Assembly: GCA_964610875.1 (NCBI GenBank)
Contig: CAZSWP010000020.1
Coordinates: 18,602 to 63,673 of the forward strand
Reading direction: 5' to 3'
Length of the DNA stretch: 45,072 nucleotides
From: an uncultured archaeon
Lineage (GTDB): Archaea; Asgardarchaeota; Thorarchaeia; Thorarchaeales; Thorarchaeaceae
Part shown: one piece after another, positions 7,811-23,742 of the stretch
How positions within the stretch are numbered: position 1 is the stretch's first letter
Layout: each line of letters opens with the position of its first letter
Notes under the pieces: model-generated
The model's input: the letters and a program-made list of their open reading frames with translations, nothing else
Databases searched by the model: none
Told to the model about the DNA's origin: nothing
Made by a program: the position numbers and the translations under genes

Positions 7811-8040
7811 GTATTGGAAAACTCAATAGCATTCATCACTTTAGTAGTGAAATCATGATTATCACATTCAAAGGTATACATGACAAATCCTTGGTATGAA
7901 AAGAAATGCATCCGTCTCACATGATAAACTATCGTAGGTTGTGCTACTTGCACAAGCTCGAGAAATTCATTTCGTCTAAACTTCACCCTATAACTGCTTG
8001 AATGAAGAGCTGCTGCGGCTCCACCGCCTGCATACGCCAT
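7795..8040 (-). CDS. Small hypothetical protein with Gly/Ala-rich N-terminus
   Basis: MAYAGGGAAAALHSSSYRVKF...FSYQGFVMYT. Start likely the second Met (8040). Its 3' end overlaps the acyl-CoA synthetase gene by 16 nt. Confidence 0.65.
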   Translation of the reverse strand: MAYAGGGAAAALHSSSYRVKFRRNEFLELVQVAQPTIVYHVRRMHFFSYQGFVMYTFECDNHDFTTKVMNAIEFSNTQWSE

Positions 8041-8118
8041 TGTTATCAATAATGGATACAATCAAGTTCAGAGTTAAACTATATTTGCATCTCTTCATTT
8101 TCTTGCCTTGATTCTTAT

Positions 8119-8469
8119 TCACCACTCATCGGAAAAAAACACAATCCATGCCACAACAGCTTCCAGATTACTATTGGGGTCTTCATCAAGTCTGAACATT
8201 GTTGAGCCAGAGGAATTAGTTATTGATTTCGATGAGAATCGAAAGCGAGTAGAACCAGAGCTGCTCATAACCGATCGACTATCATATCGTGCAATAGTAC
8301 TACCTGAGCTATTAGTCACTGATCCACTTCTAATTCGTCCAATTGTGCTACCAGATGAGTTTGCAACTGTATCAGAGGATATTCTACCTATTGTACTGCC
8401 AGAAGAATTGGTCACATAGTCACCTTTTATGTAACCAATGGTAGAACCACTACTATTCATGATTCTCAT
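8119..8469 (-). CDS. 16-aa tandem-repeat protein (six [V/I]x[N/S]SSGSTxxxx units), resembles beta-flower repeat proteins
   Basis: SSGST recurs six times at 16-aa spacing with diverged codons. Ends in a hydrophobic tail (AVVAWIVFF). Confidence 0.75.
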   Translation of the reverse strand: MRIMNSSGSTIGYIKGDYVTNSSGSTIGRISSDTVANSSGSTIGRIRSGSVTNSSGSTIARYDSRSVMSSSGSTRFRFSSKSITNSSGSTMFRLDEDPNSNLEAVVAWIVFFSDEW

Positions 8470-8545
8470 AATTCATCATACGCCAGAGAACTAGTGCAGT
8501 TTTCAACATTGAGTGTATAAACAACTAAAGATTTGAAACTAGGTT

Positions 8546-9187
8546 CTATCGCCAGTCATCACCAAATGCAGGTTTCAATTGATTTGGAATTGGGTCATCC
8601 ATCCAAGGAAGAGCCTTCTCCTTTATTCTACCACCTAGAATTGCCACTCTCTTACCGAGTTCTTTTGCCGCTTCAATAGCTTCAGTATCTCCTCGAATAT
8701 CACCCGGATGAAGAGCAAATCCCTGAGGCCACATATAGACACCTGGAATAATCATCTCCTTTACATACATGAAAAACATCAATTCTTGAAGAACAGTATC
8801 AGAACCTGAACGTCTAGCTACACTTATAGCTCCACCGACTTTTCCTCTCAGATTTACAAACCGCCCAACACGGTCTATAAAATTCTTCATCAAAGTGGGA
8901 ACTGTAGCATAGTAAGAAGGTGCACCAAATATGATTCCATCAGCCTGCTTTAACTCCTCAACAACTGAATTCAGGTCATCGTCTTGAGCGCATTCACCAA
9001 GTTCTGTACATCGCCAGTCTTGAGCACAATTCCTCAAATTAAGTTCTGAAAGATCAATAAGTTGAATTTTTGCACCGACTTCTTTTGCCGCTCCGAGAGC
9101 CTCTTGAACAAGAATGTTCGTATTTGCTCCACCTCTTGGGCTACCTGAGAAACCTAGGACATATGATGTCAATTCTGTTCCATCCAC
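8546..9187 (-). CDS. Iron-sulfur flavoprotein / multimeric flavodoxin (Isf/WrbA-like)
   Basis: GFSGSPRGGANT FMN-binding loop, CAQDWRCTELGEC cluster motif, ADGIIFGAPSY, MKNFIDR, LRGKVGG. Confidence 0.88.
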   Translation of the reverse strand: MDGTELTSYVLGFSGSPRGGANTNILVQEALGAAKEVGAKIQLIDLSELNLRNCAQDWRCTELGECAQDDDLNSVVEELKQADGIIFGAPSYYATVPTLMKNFIDRVGRFVNLRGKVGGAISVARRSGSDTVLQELMFFMYVKEMIIPGVYMWPQGFALHPGDIRGDTEAIEAAKELGKRVAILGGRIKEKALPWMDDPIPNQLKPAFGDDWR

Positions 9188-9281: not shown

Positions 9282-10781
9282 CTATGGTATTACTGCACTT
9301 GCTGCAGGATATGCGAAATCAAGCACGAATGATGCAAATGGGAATAACACGAACATTAGGATGACACATATCATCACCGCTACAAGTGGAGCACGTGCAA
9401 TCTTGAGTTTCCCATTTTCTTTTGCTTCAGAGAAGTACATTCTTCGCACAACTCTCAGATAATATCCGAGAGAGAAGACTGCATTCAATGCACCGATGAC
9501 GGCTAGCCAGATGAGGTCAGCCTCGACTGCACTCATAAATACCATGAACTTAGGCAAGAAACCAGCAGTGGGGGGTATTCCAGCTAGAGCGAACATGAAC
9601 ACACCCATAGCACCTGCCAAGAGAGGTGATCTCTCTTGTAGTCCTTCTAGTTCATCATATGACACACGCTTCCCAATCTCAATAGAAATCGCAAATACCA
9701 AAATGAAAGCTCCAGCTTTCATTAGAGCGTGAATGAATGCAAGGAAGAACGCGGATGCAAGACCATACTCAGTTCCAACAGCAATACCTATCATGAGATA
9801 ACCCATTGTTGCAATACTTGAATATGCAAGCATTCGCAGAATATCTTTCTCAGCAAGTGCAAGAAGATTTCCTATTATCATCGTCAACACTGAAACAACA
9901 ACTATCAACCATGACCACTCAAGTTGTGCAACGAAGAAGCCTACCATGAATATCCTGACAAGCGCACTAATCCCAGTCTTCTTTGTTGCGCCAGAGAGAT
10001 ATGCAGTGACACTGCCGTCAGCTGTACTATAAGTATCAGGAACCCACATCCATCCTGGAAAGATGCCAATTTTGAATCCAAAAGCAATGATGAAGAAGAC
10101 CATTGCAAGTAGTAGGGTGTATGCCGAAGTCTCCATTGTTGTTGACCCCCAGATCGTATTAACAATAAGTGCAATCTCTGACAACGCAGTAGCACCGGTA
10201 ACTCCAAACACTAATGCAATACCCAAAATCATGAACATTGTTGAAACAAGACCCATGACAAAATATTTCGTTGCACCATCAATTGCTCCTCTATCAGGAC
10301 CAAGTGCAACGAGAATATAGGTTGGTGTTGACATCATCTCCCAAGCCAGGAATAGAGCTACCAGGTCCGTAGCCATGACCACCCAGATTGCACCTGCAAA
10401 TGATATCAACAAGAGAAAATCATACGGTCCTTTATTACCTCCATAGAGGGTTGAAGATAGCATTACCAAGAATGCAATTATCAGGATGATGTAGATGAAG
10501 AAATCTGCAAAAGCATCCCTTACGAAAAGTCCACCAAAAGATGAACCATAGACAACAGGGTCGAACATAAGGAGTTCAAACCATGCTAGAATAATACCAG
10601 CAATACTGACTGGTAACGGATTTGCCTTCAATCCGACCGCAAGAGATAGTGAAGCAAAGATGATCAATGTGAGTGCTGGAAGTGATCCAATCCAAGCTTC
10701 AGGTACTATTTGCAGAATGAGGTCTCTCAAAGGTGCTAGTATTGTCTGTAACCAAGTGATGAATGAAGTTAATGTCTGCAT
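9282..10781 (-). CDS. nuoN: Complex I-like subunit N (antiporter-like)
   Basis: AWEMMSTPTY, GATKYF, FKIGIFPGWMWVPDTY, RMLAYSSI, LAGIPPTAGFLPKF. Last membrane subunit, with a TAATG overlap to nuoM. Confidence 0.92.
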   Translation of the reverse strand: MQTLTSFITWLQTILAPLRDLILQIVPEAWIGSLPALTLIIFASLSLAVGLKANPLPVSIAGIILAWFELLMFDPVVYGSSFGGLFVRDAFADFFIYIILIIAFLVMLSSTLYGGNKGPYDFLLLISFAGAIWVVMATDLVALFLAWEMMSTPTYILVALGPDRGAIDGATKYFVMGLVSTMFMILGIALVFGVTGATALSEIALIVNTIWGSTTMETSAYTLLLAMVFFIIAFGFKIGIFPGWMWVPDTYSTADGSVTAYLSGATKKTGISALVRIFMVGFFVAQLEWSWLIVVVSVLTMIIGNLLALAEKDILRMLAYSSIATMGYLMIGIAVGTEYGLASAFFLAFIHALMKAGAFILVFAISIEIGKRVSYDELEGLQERSPLLAGAMGVFMFALAGIPPTAGFLPKFMVFMSAVEADLIWLAVIGALNAVFSLGYYLRVVRRMYFSEAKENGKLKIARAPLVAVMICVILMFVLFPFASFVLDFAYPAASAVIP

Positions 10782-12289
10782 TATGGAATGCCTCCTGCAA
10801 TGAGTTCTGCAACAGGTGCAACAAGTATCAAGATTAAGTCAGGCCAGATACCAAGGATAAGTACAGGAATCATCATCAGAATAGGTGCAACGAGGTCACT
10901 CCAAGGTGCCTCATGAAGTTCCTTTTCGGGATCTGGGTCAGAAAACACAATGCGATTTAGTGTCCATAGAAGATAACCAACAGTAATGAATATTCCAAAG
11001 ACAATGAAGGCAGTCCAGATGTAAACAATAACAGAACCAAAGAGAACTAGTACTTCAGCGATGAAGCCACTGAATCCAGGTAGTCCAAACGCAGCAAAAG
11101 ATGCCAAGATGAGTAATGCTGACATCTTTGGTGCTTTACTCATAAGACCAGTCACTTCTGGAATCTCTCGTGTACCTGCTGCATATTTCATCTGTCCAGC
11201 CATGATAAACATCACAGATATGATGGTTCCATGAGACACCATCATGAAGACCGCACCTTGAATTGCTAATTCTGTACCAACAGCAACTCCAAGCAATACC
11301 CATGCCATGTGATTGATTGATGTGTAAGCAACCATACTCTTCAAGTCAGTCTGAGCCATTGCAGTAAAAGCAGCATAGATACAGGTGAAGATGGCAAGAG
11401 CTGCGAATGGAATACTAAGCCGTGCAAATGCATCAGGGACCATCCAGAGACCTAAACGAACGAAAGCATATCCACCCATTTTTAGTAAGATTCCAGCAAG
11501 TATCACAGACCCAGGTGTCGGTGCTTTTACGTGCGCATATGGAAGCCAGTTGTGCATTGGCCATACAGGCAGTTTCACACCAGCTCCTGCAAATACTGAA
11601 AGAGCAAATCCAATCTGAACCATTGGTGCAAGACCAATAGAACGAAGTGCAATCATATTGAATGTGTTAGGTTCGGCAATGAAGTAGAGTGCAAAGAATC
11701 CGACCATCATGATAGCTGAACCGAGATGCGTGTAAATGAAGAACTTAACAGCAGCGTGTTGACAACCCTCTTCGCCCCATTGTCCGATTACAAAGAACAT
11801 AGGAATCAGTACTAACTCCCAGAAGATGAAGAAGGCAAATAGGTCAAGTGACATGAAGACTCCAAGTAAGCCAGATTGTAGAATCATTAAGAGACCGTAG
11901 TAGAAACCTTCAGACTTTTTGATATGGTTCGAACTAATGACCGCGATGAACATCACCAAGTTGGAGAGGAAAATCATCGCTACTGAGATTCCATCGACGC
12001 CAAGCATAATCGAGGTCTCTGTTACGAATATTCTACCCAATGATAACTCCCATATGAACTGCATACCGAGATAGGGATCTGCAGAATCAATTGGTGAAGT
12101 ATCGAGAGCTAGTGCAAGCACAATAGCCAATCCTAGCTCGATTGCGGTTATTAGAAGAACAAGTACTCTTGCAGCTTTTCCGCGAAGCAATATTGCCAGT
12201 GCACCAGCGATTATCGGAAGGATTAACATGAAGGGCAGGATATCCATTGGAAGGAGCCCGAGAATTGTCTGTACTATGGCAAACTGCAT
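10781..12289 (-). CDS. nuoM: Complex I-like subunit M
   Basis: GVDGIS, FWELVLIPMF, AVKFFIYT, VKLPVWPMHNWLPYAHVKAPTPGSVILAGILLKMGGY, MVSHG, LPGFSGFIAE. Confidence 0.93.
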   Translation of the reverse strand: MQFAIVQTILGLLPMDILPFMLILPIIAGALAILLRGKAARVLVLLITAIELGLAIVLALALDTSPIDSADPYLGMQFIWELSLGRIFVTETSIMLGVDGISVAMIFLSNLVMFIAVISSNHIKKSEGFYYGLLMILQSGLLGVFMSLDLFAFFIFWELVLIPMFFVIGQWGEEGCQHAAVKFFIYTHLGSAIMMVGFFALYFIAEPNTFNMIALRSIGLAPMVQIGFALSVFAGAGVKLPVWPMHNWLPYAHVKAPTPGSVILAGILLKMGGYAFVRLGLWMVPDAFARLSIPFAALAIFTCIYAAFTAMAQTDLKSMVAYTSINHMAWVLLGVAVGTELAIQGAVFMMVSHGTIISVMFIMAGQMKYAAGTREIPEVTGLMSKAPKMSALLILASFAAFGLPGFSGFIAEVLVLFGSVIVYIWTAFIVFGIFITVGYLLWTLNRIVFSDPDPEKELHEAPWSDLVAPILMMIPVLILGIWPDLILILVAPVAELIAGGIP

Positions 12290-12290
12290 T

Positions 12291-14504
12291 CTAGAGCACC
12301 CCCATTGTGACGAGAATTACAAGCACCATTATTCCGATTCCGAAGATGATGACTGCAACATAATCATTCACACGACCTGTTTGAATTGTTTGTCCATCTG
12401 ACGATGCATCAACAGCAATAGTGGACACACCCTCAGCGAAAGCATCAACCACATTGTCATCAAACCAGCGTATCCTCCTTGCAAGTTCCTTAGCGGTAGC
12501 AGCTGATTTGAAGTCTATTCCGTCTATGATAATATTGTCAACCTTCACGCGCCACCATTCTGCAAAGTTGAGGAACTTATTCAGAATCCAGAAATATGCC
12601 TCATTGATGTACCATCTATGACGCAGGAAATTGTAGATCTTTCTCCTAAATCCGGACTCTGGAATTATTGTGTTTTGTTTGTCTGCGTTCTTGATGTAAA
12701 TCATGTACCCGGGGATTCCACCCAATGCAAGTGCACCCAGTGTAATGATGAAAGGAATGAAGCCTTCACCAAATTTCACGAGAATCATTTCTTCAACAAA
12801 TATCTGAGTCCATGTGTGAGTAGTCCCGAGTAACAAATTCTGAATGAACGGGAAGAATACAAATGCCGCAACAGAGAATGCAGCAAGAATGTAGAGTGGA
12901 ACCATCATCGCCGGACCAGGGTCATGTGGCGCATTATGATAATCCTCGTGAGATTCTTCTTCAGGGTTTGACTCCTTCTCACTTTCAGAATGTTCAGAAC
13001 CAGCTTCTTCATGATTCAATGTCCCATAGAAAGTCATCCCCATGAGTCGTAAGCTGTAGAAGATTGTACATGCTGCAGCAAGAACTGCAAACGCAAAGAG
13101 TATCCAACCAATAGGTTCATGAAGTGCAAGTTCGTAAGCATATTCAATTATTGAGTCCTTCGACCAGAATCCAGAAAATGGTGGAATTCCAGCAAGTGCA
13201 AGTACTCCAACCCACATCACGATGAAGGTCTTTCTCATATGTTTCTTGAGACCTCCCATTTTTGTGATGTATTTCGTATGAAGTGCGTGAATTACACCAC
13301 CTGAGGCAAGGAAGAGTAATGCCTTGAAAGCACCATGGGCCACTATATGTAGAACTCCACCTATGTAGGCATGTTCGTAATGAGCTAAGAGACCTCCAGT
13401 ACCCATTGCCAACATCATGTATCCAAGTTGACTGAGAGTAGAGAAGGCTAGCACTTGTTTGAGCTCATTAGATACCATTCCCATAGTTGCAGTCATGAGA
13501 GCCGTGACAGCACCGATGACTGCCACTATGATGAAGAATGTGGTAGCCGCTTCCAATCCGACATATTGTAGTATATTGAAAGCATGCTCTTCTCCATGTT
13601 CGCCGCTTCCTGAGGCAGCAACCATTGTGATGAGAAATCTTGCTGTGATGTAGACCCCAGCCTTCACCATTGTAGCAGCATGAATAAGAGCTGAAACCGA
13701 AGTAGGTCCAGCCATAGCTTCAGGAAGCCAAATTTGCAATGGAGCCTGTCCAGACTTACCAATTGCACCCATGAAGATAAGCAAGAACGTTGGCACAAGC
13801 ATTCCGATGCCAGCCATCACCTGCCACCAGTCTTGGGCATTGCTTGCCATATCAGTGAAGGAGAAGGTGCCAGTGAAGAAGAAGAGGAGAAGGATTCCTC
13901 CCAACATGAATGCGTCACCAATGCGAGTGACGATGAAAGCTTTTGTTCCACAGTGAGTGTTGTACTCACCCTCTGTTTCGAAGTTCAAGAGAGGATTATC
14001 AGTTTCGATATCTGTAGGATCTTTCTCTGGAGGAGTACGTTTGTCGTTCCAAAAGCCAATCAGACCATACGAACAGAAACCCATTATCTCCCAGCCAATG
14101 AATGCAATGAGTAAATTGTTGCTCAACACAAGTGTGAGCATACCACCTCCAAAAGCCAACATTAGGAAGAAGAATCGGTCACGGTCTTCCTCACCTGCCA
14201 TGTACTCGGTAGAATAAACATAGATGAGGAAACAGAGTGTGCTTGATAGTACACCCATGATTACTGAAAGCGGATCAAGAAGGACTTCAAAGTTCAGTCC
14301 AAGAGACTCTATCCAAATCCAACTCGTTCTTTCGGTAGTTCCTATATCTAAAAGGAGTGACCAGCAGAGAATCATGGTTATTCCCATAAGGATTGCAGGA
14401 GTCCAGTCCCGTAGTCGTTCATTGAACTTGCCAACCAGTGGCACTAGTATTGAACCTGCAAGAGGTATCACGAAGATGAGATAGTATGGTAGTCCAAGTA
14501 ACAT
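12291..14504 (-). CDS. nuoL: Complex I-like subunit L with extended C-terminal transverse helix
   Basis: GWEIMGFCSY, KAFIVTRIGD, GKSGQAPLQIWLPEAMAGPTSVSALIHAATMV, HGAFKALLF, GFWSKD, and C-terminal QTGRVNDY plus a final TM helix. Confidence 0.95.
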   Translation of the reverse strand: MLLGLPYYLIFVIPLAGSILVPLVGKFNERLRDWTPAILMGITMILCWSLLLDIGTTERTSWIWIESLGLNFEVLLDPLSVIMGVLSSTLCFLIYVYSTEYMAGEEDRDRFFFLMLAFGGGMLTLVLSNNLLIAFIGWEIMGFCSYGLIGFWNDKRTPPEKDPTDIETDNPLLNFETEGEYNTHCGTKAFIVTRIGDAFMLGGILLLFFFTGTFSFTDMASNAQDWWQVMAGIGMLVPTFLLIFMGAIGKSGQAPLQIWLPEAMAGPTSVSALIHAATMVKAGVYITARFLITMVAASGSGEHGEEHAFNILQYVGLEAATTFFIIVAVIGAVTALMTATMGMVSNELKQVLAFSTLSQLGYMMLAMGTGGLLAHYEHAYIGGVLHIVAHGAFKALLFLASGGVIHALHTKYITKMGGLKKHMRKTFIVMWVGVLALAGIPPFSGFWSKDSIIEYAYELALHEPIGWILFAFAVLAAACTIFYSLRLMGMTFYGTLNHEEAGSEHSESEKESNPEEESHEDYHNAPHDPGPAMMVPLYILAAFSVAAFVFFPFIQNLLLGTTHTWTQIFVEEMILVKFGEGFIPFIITLGALALGGIPGYMIYIKNADKQNTIIPESGFRRKIYNFLRHRWYINEAYFWILNKFLNFAEWWRVKVDNIIIDGIDFKSAATAKELARRIRWFDDNVVDAFAEGVSTIAVDASSDGQTIQTGRVNDYVAVIIFGIGIMVLVILVTMGVL

Positions 14505-14515
14505 CGTTCTTCACC

Positions 14516-16030
14516 TCACCCCAGAATCCCGGAAACAGCTTCTACTGCTGGCTGAATTATGTCCAGAGCCAGACCTGGGAATATTCCAAATAGCACAATA
14601 AGCACACCAAGAATAATCATAGGTATAGTCATAGAGCGAGGTGCTTCCACAATGTTCTCCAACTCTTCAGGATGGGGTCCGAGGAACACGCGCCACAGAA
14701 ATCTAAGCATATATCCGGCACTCACGATTGAGCTTGAAACTGCAAGTATTGTCAATATCAAAAATTCAGGTCTTGCAAGTATACCTCCAGAGAGAATAAC
14801 AGCCTGAAAACCTCCATAGAACATCATCCACTCACTTGCGAAACCGGACAATGGTGGACTCCCTGCAATACTCAAAGCACCAATAGCCGCAGCGAATGCT
14901 GTGATGGGCATTTTATTCGAGAGACCTCCCAATTTAGAAACGTCTCGTAATTTCGTCCGGTGGATGACCGCTCCTGCAGTCATAAACAAGAGACCCTTTG
15001 AGAATGCATGATTAATGAGATGGAAGAGACCTCCAGCAATACCAAATGTTGTGTACATTCCTAGTGCAAAAAGCACGTAGCCCATCTGTGATACCGAAGA
15101 ATAAGCAAGAAGCCGCTTGATATCCATCTGAGCAAGTGCCATGAAGCCACCGTAGAACATAGTCAGTACACCGATCACACCAACCCAGAATGAAAGGGCT
15201 GCTGCGGCAGGACCTAGAGTAATCATACCGAATCTAACAAGGGCATACGCACCAGTTTCAATCATTGCACCTGAAAGCAGAACAGAGATAGGTGTTGGTG
15301 CCTCAGCGTGGACTGGAGGAAGCCACCAGTGAATCGGAAAAACAGCCATCTTCACTAGAAATCCAGCAGCCAATAGAACGAAGATTAGTTTGAGCATTTC
15401 AATCTGACCTATGTAGGTGGGCAACATACTGGTGATGACCTGAAGCTCAAATGAACCAGTAAAGAAGTATAGTAACCCAAACCCGACAAGAATACAGACT
15501 GCACCAGACTGAGTGTAAAGCCAGAACTTCATAGCCGTTCTTTTCCTAGTTTCTGGAAGACCCCAGAATAGGATGAGAAAGTAGCTGGGAACAAGCATGA
15601 GCTCCCAAGCAATGAAGAACTCAAGTAAATTGGTTGCAAGAGTCACCCATTGCATTCCCATTAGAAAGAACAATTGATTCGCAAAGAAAGTTGGTTTGCT
15701 GTGCTCATGTTCTGTGTATCCTACAGCATAGACAACTGACAGAAAACCAAGAACTACCACTGCGAAAGTTATGGGAAAAGCAATGCCATCAAGAAATAGA
15801 CCGAACTCACCAAGGACTGTAGACCATGTCATAGATTCTAAAGCAACACCACCTTCTACCATCACCCTGTAAAAGGGAGGAAACATAAGAACCATGCTTA
15901 TTCCAGAGAAGAAAACTGCAATCTTACCAGAACTATTCTCTAAACGACCTTTCAATAGATAGATCAGAAGACCACCAATGAACAACACTACAAGCGAAAA
16001 TGTCATGAATGGTAGTTCGATCATCTGCAT
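14516..16030 (-). CDS. Additional (fourth) antiporter-like subunit, NuoM/MrpD/HyfB-like
   Basis: AWELMLVPSY, VKMAVFPIHWWLPPVHAEAPTPIS, KRLLAYSSVSQMGY, HLINHAFSKGLLF, GFASEW. Start most likely ATG 16030 (TAATG overlap with the nuoI stop, GGAGG SD upstream). Confidence 0.9.
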   Translation of the reverse strand: MQMIELPFMTFSLVVLFIGGLLIYLLKGRLENSSGKIAVFFSGISMVLMFPPFYRVMVEGGVALESMTWSTVLGEFGLFLDGIAFPITFAVVVLGFLSVVYAVGYTEHEHSKPTFFANQLFFLMGMQWVTLATNLLEFFIAWELMLVPSYFLILFWGLPETRKRTAMKFWLYTQSGAVCILVGFGLLYFFTGSFELQVITSMLPTYIGQIEMLKLIFVLLAAGFLVKMAVFPIHWWLPPVHAEAPTPISVLLSGAMIETGAYALVRFGMITLGPAAAALSFWVGVIGVLTMFYGGFMALAQMDIKRLLAYSSVSQMGYVLFALGMYTTFGIAGGLFHLINHAFSKGLLFMTAGAVIHRTKLRDVSKLGGLSNKMPITAFAAAIGALSIAGSPPLSGFASEWMMFYGGFQAVILSGGILARPEFLILTILAVSSSIVSAGYMLRFLWRVFLGPHPEELENIVEAPRSMTIPMIILGVLIVLFGIFPGLALDIIQPAVEAVSGILG

Positions 16031-16461
16031 TAACGGAACCTCCTCCCACGCCATTCAAGTGGCTCTCTTTCGAGATTTGTTATCTTATCAGGCCCATATA
16101 CTAAATCTTCTCGGTCCGCTTCACTCAAATCGACAATCGGAGTGTGGAACAAGGCGTCGAATCTACAAGCTTCTACGCAATGACCGCAGAAAATGCATCG
16201 AGTATAGTTGAAATACAGTGCTGCATCTCTCTCATATTTCTGATCATTTTTGTCAATTCTAATTGCTACTACGGGACATGCTCGAACACATTGACCACAA
16301 GCTGTGCAATTCTCACGAATATGTATATGCCGACCTCTTGTGCGCTCAGGATACTCTCTGTCTTCAAAGGGATAGAAGTACGTGAAAGGTCTCTTGAACA
16401 CTTGCCTGAATACATGTTTCAAGACAGTGAATATGTCGTCTAAAACGTCAAAGAATCCCAT
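16030..16461 (-). CDS. nuoI: Complex I-like subunit I (2x[4Fe-4S])
   Basis: TYFYPFE, RTRGRH, CTACGQCVRACP and CIFCGHCVEACR. Confidence 0.93.
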   Translation of the reverse strand: MGFFDVLDDIFTVLKHVFRQVFKRPFTYFYPFEDREYPERTRGRHIHIRENCTACGQCVRACPVVAIRIDKNDQKYERDAALYFNYTRCIFCGHCVEACRFDALFHTPIVDLSEADREDLVYGPDKITNLEREPLEWRGRRFR

Positions 16462-16465
16462 TTTG

Positions 16466-17617
16466 TTAACCTCCTGGAATCGCTATTATGGCAGCTAAGC
16501 CAGGTATGTATGCAATAACGAGCAACACGATGACTATGTTCAATATTGACAAGGGTAGTAGATACTTCCAGCAATAATGCACAATCTGATCCTGACGTAA
16601 TCTGTAGAATGATGATGATACTGTCACGAACACAAAGAATACAATCAAGAATTTGATGATGAAGTTCACCACTCCTGGAAGAAATGGTACGCCATAGAAT
16701 CCACCAAGGAAGAAGGTAACAATGAGTGCTGAGTATAGCATCTGTTCAGCAAACTCTGCAAAATACGTCAGAGTGAAATAAATGCCAGAAAACTCGGTTC
16801 GCCATCCAAAGATGATCTCAGAGTCTGCAACGGGTGCATCAAAGGGAAATATTCCAACAGAAGCGATTGAAGCCACTAAGAAAGTTGCAAAGTTGATTGG
16901 CAGCAAAACAATGAACCATAAAGAATGCTGAGCAAGAGCAATTCCCATTACACTTAGAGACCCTGCTAACAATGCTGGACCAACAGATGAAATAATCAGA
17001 GGTATCTCAGCTGCAAATTGATTGTTCGCTGCTCTGAAACCACCTATCAAAGTATATTTTGAACCACTTGTCCAACCTGCTAGTAAAGCAATAACTGGAA
17101 CCGCAGTAAGAAAGGCAAAGATGAGTACTAGGCTCACTGAAAGGTCAGCAATGAACCAATCGGTGTCCCATGGAATGAATGCAAATGGCAGCAGAACAAC
17201 TATGAGTAGTAAAGATGGAAGGAACCGATACATCCATCGTCGGGCATTCTTAGGAATAATTACTTCCTTGGCAACTAGTTTAATTGCATCCGCAAACAGT
17301 TGCAAACCACCATATTTACCCATATGAAAAGGTCCTCTTCTCAGCTGAATCCTTCCCCAGAGTTTTCTTGTGAACCAGACAGCATAGATTAATGTCATTA
17401 CTATGAAGACCAGTCCCGGGAAGATGATGGCTTTGAATAGAAATCCAATATTTGTTATGGCTAATCCCCAGACATAGAGGAATAGGTCCCAAATGTAAAG
17501 AAGCACAGCCTTTAGAATTCCCCAAATCCAGAGTATTACACCATACAACCAACTCGGGATTCCTGCTAACCAATCAATAATCCAATCAAACTGCAAAGCA
17601 ACACAACCCCCAATCAT
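16466..17617 (-). CDS. nuoH: Complex I-like subunit H
   Basis: RKLWGRIQLRRGP, GLQLFADAIKLVAKE, SKYTLIGGFRA, PFDAPVADSE, RLRQDQ. Start uncertain: ATG 17617 in an ATGA overlap with nuoD, or TTG 17596. Confidence 0.92.
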   Translation of the reverse strand: MIGGCVALQFDWIIDWLAGIPSWLYGVILWIWGILKAVLLYIWDLFLYVWGLAITNIGFLFKAIIFPGLVFIVMTLIYAVWFTRKLWGRIQLRRGPFHMGKYGGLQLFADAIKLVAKEVIIPKNARRWMYRFLPSLLLIVVLLPFAFIPWDTDWFIADLSVSLVLIFAFLTAVPVIALLAGWTSGSKYTLIGGFRAANNQFAAEIPLIISSVGPALLAGSLSVMGIALAQHSLWFIVLLPINFATFLVASIASVGIFPFDAPVADSEIIFGWRTEFSGIYFTLTYFAEFAEQMLYSALIVTFFLGGFYGVPFLPGVVNFIIKFLIVFFVFVTVSSSFYRLRQDQIVHYCWKYLLPLSILNIVIVLLVIAYIPGLAAIIAIPGG

Positions 17618-18750
17618 CTGTCCCACCATCCTACATAGGGGTCTAGACTTCCAAATATTGCAATGAAGTCTGCAAATCTAGAACCGGGTACTAAATGCTT
17701 CAAGGAATAATACGAATTTAAACAGGGACCACGTATCTTTGCTCTCCATGGAGTCTGTGCTTTCTCCTGAGTCTTTAGCCAAACTGAGGTTATTCCACGA
17801 GTGCCTTCGACTCGACCGTAAGCTTCACCTTCTGGAAGCCGATTTGCTTTTGCTCGAGCTTTTCTGTCAACTATCTCACCTTCAGGAACTTGTGGAAGAA
17901 GCTGTCTTATTATGCTTGCAGCAGTTTCGACTTCTTTGAAACGTTGAACCATCCTGTCATACGCGTCGCTTTCTCCAGGATGCTCAGGATTTTCAGTTAT
18001 AGGAACTTCCCAATCAGCTAGATCATAAGCCAAGTTAGGATCTGGCATATCTTTACGGAGGTCCATTGGGATTCCACAGGCCTTAACATTTGGACCAGAT
18101 AAGCCCCATCTTATCGCTTGTTTACCACTAAAGCGAGCAACACCATCAGTTCGTTCTCTAAATGTAGGACTACCCATAAGCATGTCCTTGAACTTTGGAA
18201 GTTGCTTCTCAAATCGATCGAGAGCTAACTCAAGTTTTTTGACTGATTTCTCAGTGAAATCAAATCGTACACCACCTGGCGTGTTATACGATACAGTATG
18301 TCGAGAACCAGTTAATTCCTCAAATGCATCAAGGAAGAACTCTCTGTCAACCCAAGGCCATAACAGCATTGTGAAGAATCCAAGTTCTGCGGAAAATTGT
18401 CCCCACCAAAACTGCATACTATGTATCCTTGATGCCTCCATCATTATCGTACGCATAATTTTGGCTCGTTCAGGCACTTCAAGTCCAGCAATCTTCTCTA
18501 CTGCTGAAATGTATGGATATTCTGAAAGAAATGCCTCTAGCATGCAAAGTCGCTCAAGAATCATTGAACCCTGCCTGAAAGTTCTGAACTCAAGACACTT
18601 CTCAGCAGATCGATGGAAGTAGCCCGCTTGCGGATCACATTCCACAATGTAGTCCCCGACCAATGTCAGCTTTGCAGCCCAACCATGAGCTGAAACATGC
18701 TGCGGGCCGAACCAGATATCAATTGCTTCATCAAGAATATCAGGAGTCAT
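17614..18750 (-). CDS. nuoD: Complex I-like subunit D (no Ni-Fe ligands)
   Basis: FGPQHVSAHG, GYFHRSAEK, EASRIHS, TGSR, GLSGP, EGTRG, C-terminal SLDPYVGWWDR. No CxxC pairs. Confidence 0.93.
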   Translation of the reverse strand: MTPDILDEAIDIWFGPQHVSAHGWAAKLTLVGDYIVECDPQAGYFHRSAEKCLEFRTFRQGSMILERLCMLEAFLSEYPYISAVEKIAGLEVPERAKIMRTIMMEASRIHSMQFWWGQFSAELGFFTMLLWPWVDREFFLDAFEELTGSRHTVSYNTPGGVRFDFTEKSVKKLELALDRFEKQLPKFKDMLMGSPTFRERTDGVARFSGKQAIRWGLSGPNVKACGIPMDLRKDMPDPNLAYDLADWEVPITENPEHPGESDAYDRMVQRFKEVETAASIIRQLLPQVPEGEIVDRKARAKANRLPEGEAYGRVEGTRGITSVWLKTQEKAQTPWRAKIRGPCLNSYYSLKHLVPGSRFADFIAIFGSLDPYVGWWDR

Positions 18751-19283
18751 CAGTCATCACCTTCGTTCTTTCGGGTCGGTCTTGGTTTAGGTTGTGGAAG
18801 CCCAGATTCTTCCAATCTGCTTCTGTCAGTTTGAAAGCTCTTTCTGAGAGGATACTTACCCTCTAATTCTTCAGGAAGTAAGAGTAATCGTAAGTCGGGA
18901 TGATCTTCGAACAGAATGCCAAACATCTCATGGGTCTCTCGCTCATGCCATTCAAGACCAGGAAAAATATCAGAAATCGTAGGCACGGTCAAATCAGACT
19001 CGTCAAGATTTATTCGAAGTTGAATTAGCAATCCATCTAAGCGAGAATAGAAGATGTAAATGACATCGAATTTACCATCGCCAAGGTCAACACCAAATAC
19101 TAACTCTGGAAAGATTAGCTTGATTTCCTCATCGAGCAAGTTGACAATATCGCGAAGGTCAGCTCTATCAATGACTAGTTCAAATGCATTACCCTCGAGG
19201 GCTCTATAACTAGCAGAAGTGTATTTGTTAGTGAGTTTGCGACCAAGAGTAGCAGCATTTTGTTTCGATGTCCCTTCACTCAT
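18750..19283 (-). CDS. nuoC: Complex I-like subunit C
   Basis: VPTISDIFPGLEWHERETHEMFGILFEDHPDLRLLLL...YPLRK. Confidence 0.93.
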   Translation of the reverse strand: MSEGTSKQNAATLGRKLTNKYTSASYRALEGNAFELVIDRADLRDIVNLLDEEIKLIFPELVFGVDLGDGKFDVIYIFYSRLDGLLIQLRINLDESDLTVPTISDIFPGLEWHERETHEMFGILFEDHPDLRLLLLPEELEGKYPLRKSFQTDRSRLEESGLPQPKPRPTRKNEGDD

Positions 19284-19596
19284 TAATTACTAACTCCTTT
19301 TGTATGGGATGGCCGAAGTCAACAGTTCCATATCGTTTATTGTACATCAACATTAGAACCAATGCTAATGCAGTATGTGCAGCTGAAACAGATATGATTA
19401 GGATTATCAGCCCCTGTCCTGTGAACGAAAAGACATTGTTATATAGTGCAAACGCAACAAGTGCAATATTCGCACCATTTGCCATTATCTCAGCAGAGAT
19501 GAGGATGCGAATGAGATTTCTTTTGACCATCATTCCATATGCACCCATTCCAACTAGAATGAAAGCAACAACGAGATACCAAGATAATGGAATCAT
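19276..19596 (-). CDS. nuoK: Complex I-like subunit K
   Basis: Three TM helices, KRNLIRILISAEIMANG, GQGL, VSAAHTALAL. Confidence 0.9.
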   Translation of the reverse strand: MIPLSWYLVVAFILVGMGAYGMMVKRNLIRILISAEIMANGANIALVAFALYNNVFSFTGQGLIILIISVSAAHTALALVLMLMYNKRYGTVDFGHPIQKELVINE

Positions 19597-20240
19597 TGTT
19601 CATCACCCTCCAGTGTGGTAGCTTCGATCTCTACCACTACCTCATTATCATCAGAAGGGTCTGCTTCAATGCCAAACTCACCTTCAATTGATGCGAGCTC
19701 TTCTGCTTTTTCCATCTGAAGAATAGCAATGGACCCAACAATTGACGTGATGAGAATTATTGCAATAATCTGAACATAGATACCATGATCATCCCAGAGC
19801 CAGACGGCTAAATCATGTAAACTCTGAGATATGTCTGGAGAGCCAGCAGGAATAACTTCGGGCCAAGGAAATATAATAGCCAGCACTGCTGAGAGCCCAA
19901 TTACCACACCAGTTAATGCTAAACCGAGTATTCTCGCTCGCCGAGACGCAAATTCCTCGAGCGTTCTATCTTGGGCGCGAGGGAGAAGCAAAACAGCAAA
20001 GATAATGAGGGCACTGATGCCGCCCGTATAGACTGCGATTTGCATCCCCGCAATGAACGGGGCATCTAGAAGTAGAAAGAATCCAGATACAAAAGATGCC
20101 ATAAATCCAAAGAAGAAAGCTGCATATACGATGTCCTTATGCTCAAGTGCAAGATATGCTAAGAATATAACAATGCTTGCTATTAGGATGAATTCAAACT
20201 GCTCAAATAATTCGATTGCCGGATCTACCTCTTGAAGCAT
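19593..20240 (-). CDS. nuoJ: Complex I-like subunit J
   Basis: LLDAPFIAGMQIAVYTGGISALIIFAVLL. Start moved to ATG 20240 (GGTGAT SD just after the nuoA stop). Confidence 0.9.
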   Translation of the reverse strand: MLQEVDPAIELFEQFEFILIASIVIFLAYLALEHKDIVYAAFFFGFMASFVSGFFLLLDAPFIAGMQIAVYTGGISALIIFAVLLLPRAQDRTLEEFASRRARILGLALTGVVIGLSAVLAIIFPWPEVIPAGSPDISQSLHDLAVWLWDDHGIYVQIIAIILITSIVGSIAILQMEKAEELASIEGEFGIEADPSDDNEVVVEIEATTLEGDEQ

Positions 20241-20250
20241 GATTATCACC

Positions 20251-20685
20251 CTATTTACCGTGCTGCTCCTTTTCCCGTGCTGCTTTTGCTTCACGATATA
20301 GTTGTAGTGTTTCTTGTCCACTGAGAAATGCTTGCGGTAGCATCTTCATGGCATATCCAATACCACCCATAATAATCACGAGAAATATCAGTGTCTGCCA
20401 CACAACTATTGGTTCAAAACGGAGCTCTGAAGAGGCTAAGAGCCACAAGAAAGCACCCATGACATCAACAACAACAAACAAGATTGTGTACACGAAGTAG
20501 TTGTAGGGATATGACACACGGGCAGTCCCAATTGGTACCTCACCACATTCGTAGGTGGATGTCTTTTCTGAATTTTGCAAAACATGTGGTCGTAAAACCC
20601 ATGAAGCTAAGAGCATTATAATCACTAAAGCTATGGCCAATAATCCCCACACGATCACGGGTACGAAGTCTACGAAGAGCCTCAT
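20251..20685 (-). CDS. nuoA: Complex I-like subunit A
   Basis: Three TM helices, EKTSTYECGEVPIG, YFVYTILFVVVDV. Confidence 0.92.
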   Translation of the reverse strand: MRLFVDFVPVIVWGLLAIALVIIMLLASWVLRPHVLQNSEKTSTYECGEVPIGTARVSYPYNYFVYTILFVVVDVMGAFLWLLASSELRFEPIVVWQTLIFLVIIMGGIGYAMKMLPQAFLSGQETLQLYREAKAAREKEQHGK

Positions 20686-21325: not shown

Positions 21326-21805
21326 TCAATCTGTAGTTTCTGTAGAAGTAATTGGTTCACCTTCTTCTTCAACTAATTCTTCTTGACCTGGTGGATAATG
21401 AAGTTTTGAAGTATCAATTATTCCAGGACTTGTACTCTCTTCCACTGGTGGAAACATCATTATCGCTATTGCGATAAGAAATGCTGACCCTGCGCCCCAA
21501 GTAGTGATAAGTGTGCTTGAGTCTAGTGCCCAATCATGATATATGAAAACAACTATTGCATAGAGCAGAGTTAATACGCCAGAGATTGACATCATCAATG
21601 ATTTGATTTTCCCTGTATCGGGTTTCAGAAATCCAGTATATAGAATCAACAGTAGCAGTGGACCTCCAAGTACAGCTAGAAGTAATGTAATACTTCCAAT
21701 CGTACCTGTCATCCAAGTATAGAAGAAGCTGAAATAATAGGCACTGAGAAGCATTACACCCATCCAAATCATGCAATAGTGAGAACTGTCCTCGCGAAGT
21801 CTCAT
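21326..21805 (-). CDS. 4-TM membrane protein with acidic C-tail, translationally coupled to the FAD-NuoB fusion
   Basis: ATGA overlap with the fusion gene at 21802-21805, four hydrophobic segments, tail QEELVEEEGE. Confidence 0.75.
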   Translation of the reverse strand: MRLREDSSHYCMIWMGVMLLSAYYFSFFYTWMTGTIGSITLLLAVLGGPLLLLILYTGFLKPDTGKIKSLMMSISGVLTLLYAIVVFIYHDWALDSSTLITTWGAGSAFLIAIAIMMFPPVEESTSPGIIDTSKLHYPPGQEELVEEEGEPITSTETTD

Positions 21806-23742
21806 TTCATCATCCCCACTGAGTCTTGATTCTCATGCTTTTGTTGCCAGTGTGTAGTACCAGCACGAATCTTGTTTTGAAGTATAATATGCGCTCTCAC
21901 AAAGTCTGAAGGTTTGGGAGGACACCCTGGAATGTAAACATCAACAGGCACCACTTTATCAGGCGGTGTCATGAGTGAATATCCATCATAGAACATTCCT
22001 CCGCTAGCAGCGCATTGGCCAAAGGAGATAACAAACTTTGGTTCAGGTAGTTGCTCGTATATTCTTCGGAGGCGAGGCGTCATCTTCTTTGTGAGAGAGC
22101 CGGAGATCCATAGAACATCACATTGTCTCGGTCCAAATAGTGGCAACATTCCAAATCTCTCGATGTCCCATCTTGATGCAACAGCTGCTGCACCATCAGC
22201 CATACAACATCCAAGTCCGTATTGAACTGGCCATGGACTATGAGCACGACCCCATCGCAATAGCCATTTTACGGGTGGTAGATTCTGTACCCATTTCAGC
22301 AGAATAGGTGCAATGCGACCAAAGCCGTTTCTAAACAAATCATACCCAATCCACATGAAGTACTTACCAACCCGAATCATGAACGGCAGCCAGAATGCAA
22401 ACACCTTACCTGGGTTAGAGACCTCATTTGGGTCATACTTGAGCTTGGCAACTCGTATTTTTGCAAGCCGTTTCTTGCCAAAGTACTGAGAGGCATAGTT
22501 AGCGAACCAAATACCGGTTGAATGCACATGACCTCCGTGACGTTGAGCAATCTTAAAGATGACAAAACTTTGTGACCATGAGAGAAGATAGAATGGTCGG
22601 CGCTCATCTTCGAGGAAGTACCCCATCATCGTCGCACCACTCTTAGAAGTTATATAACCATCAATTCCAGCTTCAGCAGATGCCTGCTCAAATTGGAAAT
22701 CATCAAGTATTGCGTGGAGGTTCTCAAGGGGGGCAAATGCCTGACCCACAACTAATGTCGGACCTACTTTCTTAATCTTCATTGGATAGAATCTATCATG
22801 CCACTCATGATCTGCTACATGTTCATCATAAACAGTGCCTCTGAATTCATCAACTACCTCTCTGAATGTCTGTTCACCAGCTTCTACTTCTGCGGGAGAC
22901 CCTTCGTAAGCAACTAAGAGAACACAATGATAAACAGGATAGGGGAACGGTTCTTCCTCCTCCCAAGCTTGTTTCTTTAGATCTGTATACTTGCTCTCTT
23001 CAAACTTCATAGTATATGGAAGAGGTCCTCTCTCTAGCATATGCTCAATTGCCATTGTTAATTGGTAATTTTCTTCGAAGCTTGCTACAAGTGGACGAAT
23101 TTCAGTCGTCTTCTTAATCTTGATTTTTACCTCTGTAATGATACCGAGGATACCTTCGGTATCGCAGAAAAGATCGGTGTCTTTTGTTATGATGAGCTGA
23201 CCTGTTGGAAGTACTACCTGAAACTCAAGCACATTTTCGTTGACATTACCATATTTCAGGCTACCAATACCATCTCCACCTTGTGCCACCCATCCACCAA
23301 CTGAAGCTGAAATTCCAGAAGAAGGATAACATCGTAAATCTAACCCTTGACGATTCAATTCATGCTGAAGGTCCTGCCATGTTATTCCTGGCTCAACAGT
23401 AGCAGTGAGATTTTCTCCATCAATGTCAATGATATTATCCATTCTGCGCATGTCAACAATAATTCCGCCCTTTCGAGGGATTGCTCCACCATATCCGCTA
23501 GTGCCTGCAGCTCTTGGTACTAGAGGTATTTTCTCTTTGTTTGCAAATTTATAGAGTTTCATAATCTCTTCAGGATTAACTGGTTGGACAGCCGCATCAG
23601 GAGTGTTATTGATGAACCATCCTACCTGTTTTGGTAGAGATCCTACATCTGTCTTGAAGAGATGGAGTTCATGTTTAGCAGTGACCAGTCGGGCTCCAAA
23701 TATTTCTTCTAGAGCATCTAACTGCTTTTTTTTCAGACCCAT
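21802..23742 (-). CDS. nuoB: Fusion of FAD-binding (GlcD/Dld, VAO-type) oxidoreductase and complex I subunit B
   Basis: aa ~1-450: PDAAVQP, VPRAAGTSGYGG, TVEPG, ASVGGWVAQGGDGIGSLKYG, EGILGIITE, YDPNEVSNPGK. aa ~490-646: PWPVQYGLGCC, DIERFG, PRQCDVLWISG, YEQLPEPKFVISFGQCAASGG, VDVYIPGCPPKP. One uninterrupted ORF. Confidence 0.93.
   Translation of the reverse strand: MGLKKKQLDALEEIFGARLVTAKHELHLFKTDVGSLPKQVGWFINNTPDAAVQPVNPEEIMKLYKFANKEKIPLVPRAAGTSGYGGAIPRKGGIIVDMRRMDNIIDIDGENLTATVEPGITWQDLQHELNRQGLDLRCYPSSGISASVGGWVAQGGDGIGSLKYGNVNENVLEFQVVLPTGQLIITKDTDLFCDTEGILGIITEVKIKIKKTTEIRPLVASFEENYQLTMAIEHMLERGPLPYTMKFEESKYTDLKKQAWEEEEPFPYPVYHCVLLVAYEGSPAEVEAGEQTFREVVDEFRGTVYDEHVADHEWHDRFYPMKIKKVGPTLVVGQAFAPLENLHAILDDFQFEQASAEAGIDGYITSKSGATMMGYFLEDERRPFYLLSWSQSFVIFKIAQRHGGHVHSTGIWFANYASQYFGKKRLAKIRVAKLKYDPNEVSNPGKVFAFWLPFMIRVGKYFMWIGYDLFRNGFGRIAPILLKWVQNLPPVKWLLRWGRAHSPWPVQYGLGCCMADGAAAVASRWDIERFGMLPLFGPRQCDVLWISGSLTKKMTPRLRRIYEQLPEPKFVISFGQCAASGGMFYDGYSLMTPPDKVVPVDVYIPGCPPKPSDFVRAHIILQNKIRAGTTHWQQKHENQDSVGMMK

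Follow-up and report, generated by a model that had tools for sequence, protein, structure and literature searches.

A lateral helix one module longer than that of its three-pump relatives in the NuoL of a thorarchaeal complex I-like cassette with four antiporter-like genes

Here we describe the nuoL gene of an uncultured thorarchaeon (Asgardarchaeota; GenBank assembly GCA_964610875.1), which lies in a 45,072-nucleotide stretch of contig CAZSWP010000020.1 (positions 18,602 to 63,673, forward strand), referred to below as the window. The gene belongs to a complex I-like cassette of eleven core subunits which encodes four antiporter-like subunits, or pumps, if we count a gene named M' that sits between nuoI and nuoL. 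The lateral helix of this NuoL is 26 residues longer than that of the nearest three-pump relatives, and we put the probability that M' is built into the membrane arm and spanned by the helix at roughly 0.6. An earlier note on this DNA, made from the sequence alone, had read the insertion as the hallmark of an arm lengthened by one pump. Our survey of L proteins instead points to a long helix that is necessary for a fourth pump beneath it and is not diagnostic of one.

By profile search, the nuoL product belongs to the NuoL/ND5 family, scoring 455.5 bits against TIGR01974 (NDH_I_L; cut-off 407.5). Its closest orthologues, 64–77% identical, are named Thorarchaeota, and its best matches among solved structures are 6hum_F, 8e9g_L and 4he8_L. 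In common with canonical NuoL, Nqo12, NdhF1 and ND5, it combines PF00361, PF00662 and TIGR01974 with the succession of transmembrane helix (TM) 15, lateral helix and TM16, and has the W-Y-x-D/N and Q-T-G anchors. The region to which the earlier note drew attention, 12375–12620 on the minus strand, does correspond to NuoL residues 629–710, and holds WYINEAY (631–637), VDNIIIDGI (655–663), FDDNVVDAF (681–689) and QTG (708–710). The two D-x4-D motifs reported there are present, their first aspartates, D656 and D682, lying exactly 26 residues apart; canonical proteins have one such module.

We measured helix length as a ruler from the conserved Trp (W631) to the Gly of QTG (G710), set by MAFFT anchor columns. 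Other length measures were dropped, as regular expressions were unreliable and the hydropathy-based TM gap failed in roughly a quarter of the proteins. By this ruler the window NuoL measures 80 residues, compared with 54 both in L2, a paralogue in the same genome (contig C33), and in T. elongatus NdhF1, 51 in E. coli NuoL, and 51–54 in canonical proteins. The net insertion of 26 residues proposed in the note is thus real, and motif counting, phmmer and MAFFT agree on it. By phmmer, one and the same stretch of NdhF1 (6hum_F, residues 595–612) matches both helix copies of the window protein. The L2 paralogue and NdhF1 have a single helix module each and the window NuoL has two, and by these alignments one of modules 1 and 2 is the net extra module.

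Only 2/26 residues and 27/78 bases are identical between the modules, and in a single-sequence shuffle test (BLOSUM, ungapped) the repeat was not significant, its score being reached by 137/500 shuffles. When a family profile of twelve diverse clade members was matched against itself, offset 26 was the unique best (17.6, with the next best at −1.4), a score reached by 0/300 column shuffles. As the match appears at the level of the profile and the modules are barely alike in sequence, the module duplication is ancient, not recent. In an AlphaFold2 (AF2) model of NuoL, with a predicted local distance difference test score (pLDDT) of 84 and a predicted template-modelling score (pTM) of 0.83, the C-terminus folds into helices 582–605, 619–628, 630–690, 698–706 and 711–733. 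TM15, a lateral amphipathic helix and TM16 are all present in the model and in the alignment to the NdhF1 helix, and both modules lie within one continuous helix, residues 630–690, and not in a loop. Confidence drops along the lateral helix from a pLDDT of ~85 to 54 and then 40, with residues 681–710 covering the low end.

The fourth antiporter gene on which the note relied is inside the operon. Reading frames are closely set throughout this part: nuoI and M' overlap by 25 nt, M' and nuoL are 11 nt apart, nuoL and nuoM are 1 nt apart, and nuoM and nuoN overlap by 1 nt. The position of M' between nuoI and nuoL is conserved. We surveyed 201 genomes of the phylum, which yielded 85 loci. The order M'-L-M-N recurs in every orthologous locus of the Thor family that has both its flanks, M' being kept in 19 Thor loci, and likewise in four other Asgard families (L033, L048, L065 and L054/L058). 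A search of 1.8 billion representatives returned P0124 and P0126 as the two nearest non-Thor relatives, and around both the order is K/H-M'-L-M-N.

M' scores 306 bits against NDH_I_M, with MrpA, HyfB and MbxH'-like models nearly equal, and in 12/12 orthologues it retains Glu in TM5, Lys in TM7 and Glu in TM12. On trees it sits among the M-class subunits (clade support 98%), falls outside the Nuo-type M clade and groups with the Mp/M2 subunits of L2-type modules; it is 34% identical to the M2 of its own genome. In L2-Mp-N2 modules the Mp subunit is encoded directly after L2, which is the place of NuoM after NuoL. An origin of M' by duplication of NuoM is rejected, since a clade of M' with the cassette's own M has a p-value of ~1e-68 in the approximately unbiased (AU) test, and M' belongs to a Mrp/hydrogenase-type lineage.

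In a FastTree tree of L cores, the window NuoL falls in a 26-member clade (support 92), all members of which measure 79–81 residues and which has M' in every member with known gene context. This clade is nested in the L2 lineage (99%), where two, three and four pumps go with helices of 27–28, 53–55 and 79–81 residues, with few exceptions; L2-N2 clusters have 27–28 residues and L2-Mp/M2-N2 clusters 53–55. Because the L2 lineage follows this rule, the nearest three-pump relatives of the window NuoL have a short helix. Three-pump clusters with 80 residues are found mostly in the Nuo-type L lineage. A natural control is provided by Nitrososphaerales, in which the cluster L101 (2834–7990, plus strand; H-I-J-K-M'-L-N), without a Nuo-type M, has a helix of 55 residues and its relatives L097 and L100, with M'-L-M-N, have one of 81. 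Our trees are quick LG+G4 or FastTree reconstructions whose groups were named only once a first tree had been inspected, and their deep order is to be read cautiously.

Across 217 L-like proteins the ruler is quantised, at 27–29 (13 proteins), 51–57 (88), 78–84 (99) and 105–108 residues (12), and the tree of these proteins requires at least 41 changes of helix class. Gene content was known for 86 clusters. Those with two pumps have a helix of 27 (n = 8) or 80 residues (n = 3), those with three pumps 54 (n = 32), 80 (n = 13) or 107 (n = 5), and those with four pumps 80 (n = 23) or 107 (n = 2). Named GTDB loci that are not cut by a contig end gave 34 with three pumps and 54 residues, nine with three pumps and 80 residues, and seven with four pumps and 80 residues. 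In the whole survey of ~300 L proteins, the helix measured at least 79 residues in 32/32 four-pump clusters and 54 in 0/32. The four-pump set comprises bacteria (Nitrospira, Nitrospiraceae and Limisphaerales; order L-M-M-N, helix 80) as well as archaea, namely Thaumarchaeota and Nitrososphaerales with M'-L-M-N and helix 81, and Bathyarchaeia with M'-L-M, a gap of ~3 kb and then N, also with helix 81. A minimum rule holds in every cluster, the helix being at least (pumps − 1) × 27 residues long, and it is frequently longer. The net insertion, the gene content and how widely it is conserved, the family trees and the statistics on helix length are direct observations.

These data suggest a model in which the lateral helix would be a chain of docking modules of 26–27 residues each. 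An α-helix rises 1.5 Å per residue, and a module of ~39 Å is about as long as one antiporter-like subunit is wide. The helix of the window NuoL would accordingly have one module more than in three-pump relatives of the same L lineage, and the extra length, ~39 Å if helical, would be just enough for the span from L across M', M and N to the TM16 anchor. M' would most likely be a stoichiometric, ion-translocating subunit that adjoins L beneath helix module 1. We infer its physical incorporation, its position in the arm and the translocation of one extra ion per cycle.

Several observations weigh against a built-in M'. Helices of 80 or 107 residues are found in 27/93 three-pump clusters. Asgard families f14, f20, f26 and f22 have an 80- or 107-residue helix with L, M and N only; in f22 the cassette is complete from A to N and the helix measures 107. 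The Asgard genome G054, at 93% completeness, contains only three PF00361 genes, yet its helix measures 82 residues. Bacterial representatives with a long helix and full gene context have only L, M and N in 5/5 cases, and nine named bacterial loci likewise pair a long helix with three pumps. The L2 lineage has its own exceptions in L044/L051 (82 residues), L074, L054/L058 (108) and P0154 (83), the last with the order K-M'-L-N. The central TM8 Lys of M' is replaced by Glu in 10/12 orthologues of four-gene clusters (window codon 15257–15259). The Asgard set, moreover, contains only two phylogenetically independent contrasts between four and three pumps, too few for statistics. The earlier note had held that close relatives with three antiporter genes and the same helix length would speak against its reading. 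Within the lineage of this L such three-gene relatives have 54 residues, which supports the note; beyond that lineage the long three-pump helices count against it. The insertion is therefore no hallmark of an added pump: a fourth pump under the helix requires the extra length, but the length does not by itself reveal such a pump.

The three-pump clusters with one or two surplus modules are an argument for reading the extra module as spare length. M' would then be part of the complex but distal to L, held on the side of the β-hairpin and not under the helix, and helix length would be uninformative on M'. P0154, with M'-L-N and a helix of 83, is in keeping with this arrangement, as is the gene order, which places M' ahead of L. 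Spare length would nevertheless demand that, within the L2 lineage, each cluster with M' has precisely one module too many and those without M' (54 and 27 residues) have none, and L101, compared with L097 and L100, obeys the exact rule with zero surplus. Mp-type subunits are, in addition, encoded directly after L2 in the parent clusters. We regard this explanation as unlikely, though it is the strongest of the rivals, and as less economical than a built-in M'.

A more distant alternative places M' outside this complex altogether, as a co-transcribed part of a Mrp-like transporter acting elsewhere, for example with the J-K-L2-M2-N2 module of the same genome. The Mp/M2 lineage that M' shares with the M2 of that second cluster and its Glu in place of the TM8 Lys speak for such a role. 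The second cluster has an M2 of its own, however, the frames of M' overlap or nearly abut those of its neighbours within the operon, and its position is kept across Asgard families, Thaumarchaeota and Bathyarchaeia. We also know of no lone antiporter-like subunit, of Mrp or of complex I, that functions alone, and consider a role elsewhere improbable. Least probable of all, to the point where we give it very little credence, is that the helix is not truly extended and that the 26 residues form a loop or hairpin or reflect an alignment artefact. The low AF2 confidence over residues 681–710 and the 2/26 identity of the helix copies could be read that way, but three methods return the same +26, AF2 gives a single helix over residues 630–690, lengths across the 217 proteins move in steps of 26–27, and the profile repeats at exactly offset 26. 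On balance we favour an M' that is built into the arm, beside L.

The argument that a 26-residue insertion spans an added subunit reportedly goes back to Chadwick et al. in 2018. Bacterial 2M clusters (L104, L156 and L133) resemble the window in the number of antiporter-like genes, four, and in a NuoL helix that measures 80 residues. They differ in their order L-M-M-N, with both M subunits in the Nuo-type M clade, whereas the extra subunit of the window is encoded ahead of L and comes from the Mp/M2 lineage. For bacterial 2M complex I the spanning argument has been published, and the gene order of Chloroflexi is given as nuoL-M1-M2-N (PMC9040806, PMC7117926). For archaea, a preprint already reports a duplicated M in ammonia-oxidising archaea and Angelarchaeales, and describes the ammonia-oxidiser complex I without NuoEFG (bioRxiv 10.1101/2021.05.03.442362). 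Together with the Thaumarchaeota and Bathyarchaeia in our own set, with M'-L-M-N and a helix of 81, this means that the window does not hold the first 2M design known from archaea. The 2M clusters of ammonia-oxidising Nitrososphaerales (L097, L100) and of Bathyarchaeia (L098/L099) resemble that of the window, with the order K-M'-L-M-N and a helix of 81 residues. Unlike in these, the M' and L of the Thor type lie in their own clade, NuoB carries a GlcD-like flavoprotein domain as a fusion, and the phylum is Asgard.

Two further groups of clusters bear comparison. On trees, the window L and M' belong with the Mrp- or group-4-hydrogenase-like L2-Mp/M2-N2 modules of Asgard archaea, including that on contig C33, and the helix modules are homologous. 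Those modules have three pumps (helix 54) or two (27) in the order L2-Mp-N2, whereas in the window M' comes before L, and the place of N2 is taken by M and N of Nuo type. Three-pump clusters without an NADH module and with a helix of 80 or 107 residues occur in Ignavibacteria, Terriglobia, Binatia, Planctomycetota and Asgard f14, f22 and f26. They have the same 7+17+9+17+9+21 architecture (e.g. P0192) but no fourth antiporter gene. Our search of the literature on Thor or Asgard four-pump complex I found no description of the cassette. It is a known design in a new phylum, set apart by the lineage of its M' and L and by the fusion of NuoB to a flavoprotein.

By its affinities the cassette looks chimeric, with M' and L of Mrp/hydrogenase-type lineage and M and N of Nuo type. 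The Nuo-type M subunits of all archaeal M'-L-M-N cassettes form one clade (99% support). A joint clade of the Thor-type M' with that of the ammonia-oxidiser/Bathyarchaeia type is rejected (AU p 6e-5), and a joint clade of Thor-type and ammonia-oxidiser-type L is weakly rejected (AU p 0.016). On these quick LG+G4 trees, common descent of all four large subunits with the ammonia-oxidiser cassette is not supported. We tentatively put forward, as a possible but far from favoured reading, that the Thor cassette could be a third independent four-pump assembly, distinct from that of bacteria (L-M-M-N) and from that of ammonia oxidisers and Bathyarchaeia, in which a Mrp/hydrogenase-type M'-L pair was joined to a Nuo-type M-N pair. 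The helix would be a modular ruler of 26–27-residue units, gained or lost dozens of times, that sets the maximum and not the actual number of pumps. If the ruler sets only a maximum, helix growth could precede the recruitment of a pump.

Surplus modules, one or two per helix, were seen in complete three-pump cassettes of Asgard f22 (L067, L068, L071 and L072) and of bacteria (L116, L122, L129, L137, L146, L149, L151, L160 and L176), with helices of 80 or 107 residues. In L054/L058 (Asgard f12; M'-L-M-N), the helix of 108 residues has three D/E-x4-D-like units, one module beyond what four pumps need. The helix of L074 (8806–10884, plus strand), from an L2-N2 cluster, measures 72 residues and holds a near-exact tandem repeat, KLGNATKNFHQS[I/L]DK, present twice, and by its sequence this looks like a recent module duplication in progress. 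In the f14 cluster L078, a 235-residue protein with hydrophobic N- and C-terminal segments and no Pfam match is encoded between nuoL and nuoM (7813–8520, minus strand), and in the Chloroflexota cluster of P0171 two small genes separate L from M; the products in both clusters are candidates for additional subunits beneath a long helix. The TM8 Glu in place of Lys is also found in several Mp subunits of three-pump clusters, and NuoM, NuoN and M2 have Lys.

The operon runs on the minus strand in the order GlcD-like::NuoB, a 159-residue open reading frame (ORF), A, J, K, C, D, H, I, M', L, M and N (Table 1), and NuoE, F and G are absent from it. M', L, M and N, the four large subunits, add up to 2250 residues. 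At its head, NuoB models match residues 490–637 of the fusion of a GlcD-like flavin adenine dinucleotide (FAD) oxidase with NuoB, a protein of 646 residues that is 70–83% identical across Thor loci. The 159-residue ORF (21326–21805, minus strand), between the NuoB fusion and nuoA, is conserved and has no Pfam match. Directly downstream of nuoN lies a gene for an NADPH-dependent FMN reductase-like protein (8546–9187, minus strand). The second membrane module of this genome, J-K-L2-M2-N2 (L001, G000:C33, 8276–14289; helix 54), is at a contig end. The assembly measures 3.75 Mb and is 95% complete, and its DNA is present in microbial-mat metagenomes (three DNA runs from one study).

Table 1. Features of the complex I-like operon and of the NuoL lateral helix, in window coordinates.
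Feature	Coordinates	Strand	Basis
nuoL, 737 aa, antiporter-like subunit with lateral helix	12291..14504	-	PF00361 + PF00662
Ruler segment of lateral helix, W631-G710, 80 residues	12375..12614	-	Anchors; AF2
Helix module 1, residues 638-663, ends in VDNIIIDGI (12516-12542)	12516..12593	-	
Helix module 2, residues 664-689, ends in FDDNVVDAF (12438-12464)	12438..12515	-	Profile self-match at offset 26
TM15, helix preceding lateral helix, residues 582-605	12690..12761	-	AF2 secondary structure
TM16, anchor helix after lateral helix, residues 711-733	12306..12374	-	AF2 secondary structure
M', 512 aa, fourth antiporter-like subunit, between nuoI and nuoL	14516..16054	-	PF00361
nuoM, 502 aa, Nuo-type M	10781..12289	-	NDH_I_M 417.5 bits; in clade with E. 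coli NuoM
nuoN, 499 aa	9282..10781	-	NDH_I_N best family, 310.2 bits, under cut-off 332.6; Nuo-type N clade
nuoA-J-K-C-D-H-I, upstream of M'	16030..20685	-	ORFs, translations; order kept in Thor loci
GlcD-like FAD domain fused to NuoB, operon head	21802..23742	-	PF01565, PF02913, PF01058

The rule in the literature is qualified by these results: the 26-residue insertion is found in every four-pump cluster, yet it is by itself no evidence of a fourth pump, as it also occurs in about three in ten of the sampled three-pump cassettes. Were M' built in, each reaction cycle of the enzyme in Thorarchaeota and several other Asgard lineages would move five ions, not four, or alternatively these archaea could sustain reverse electron flow against a gradient that is steeper. 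Either outcome would bear on energy conservation in low-energy anaerobes related to the eukaryotic host lineage.

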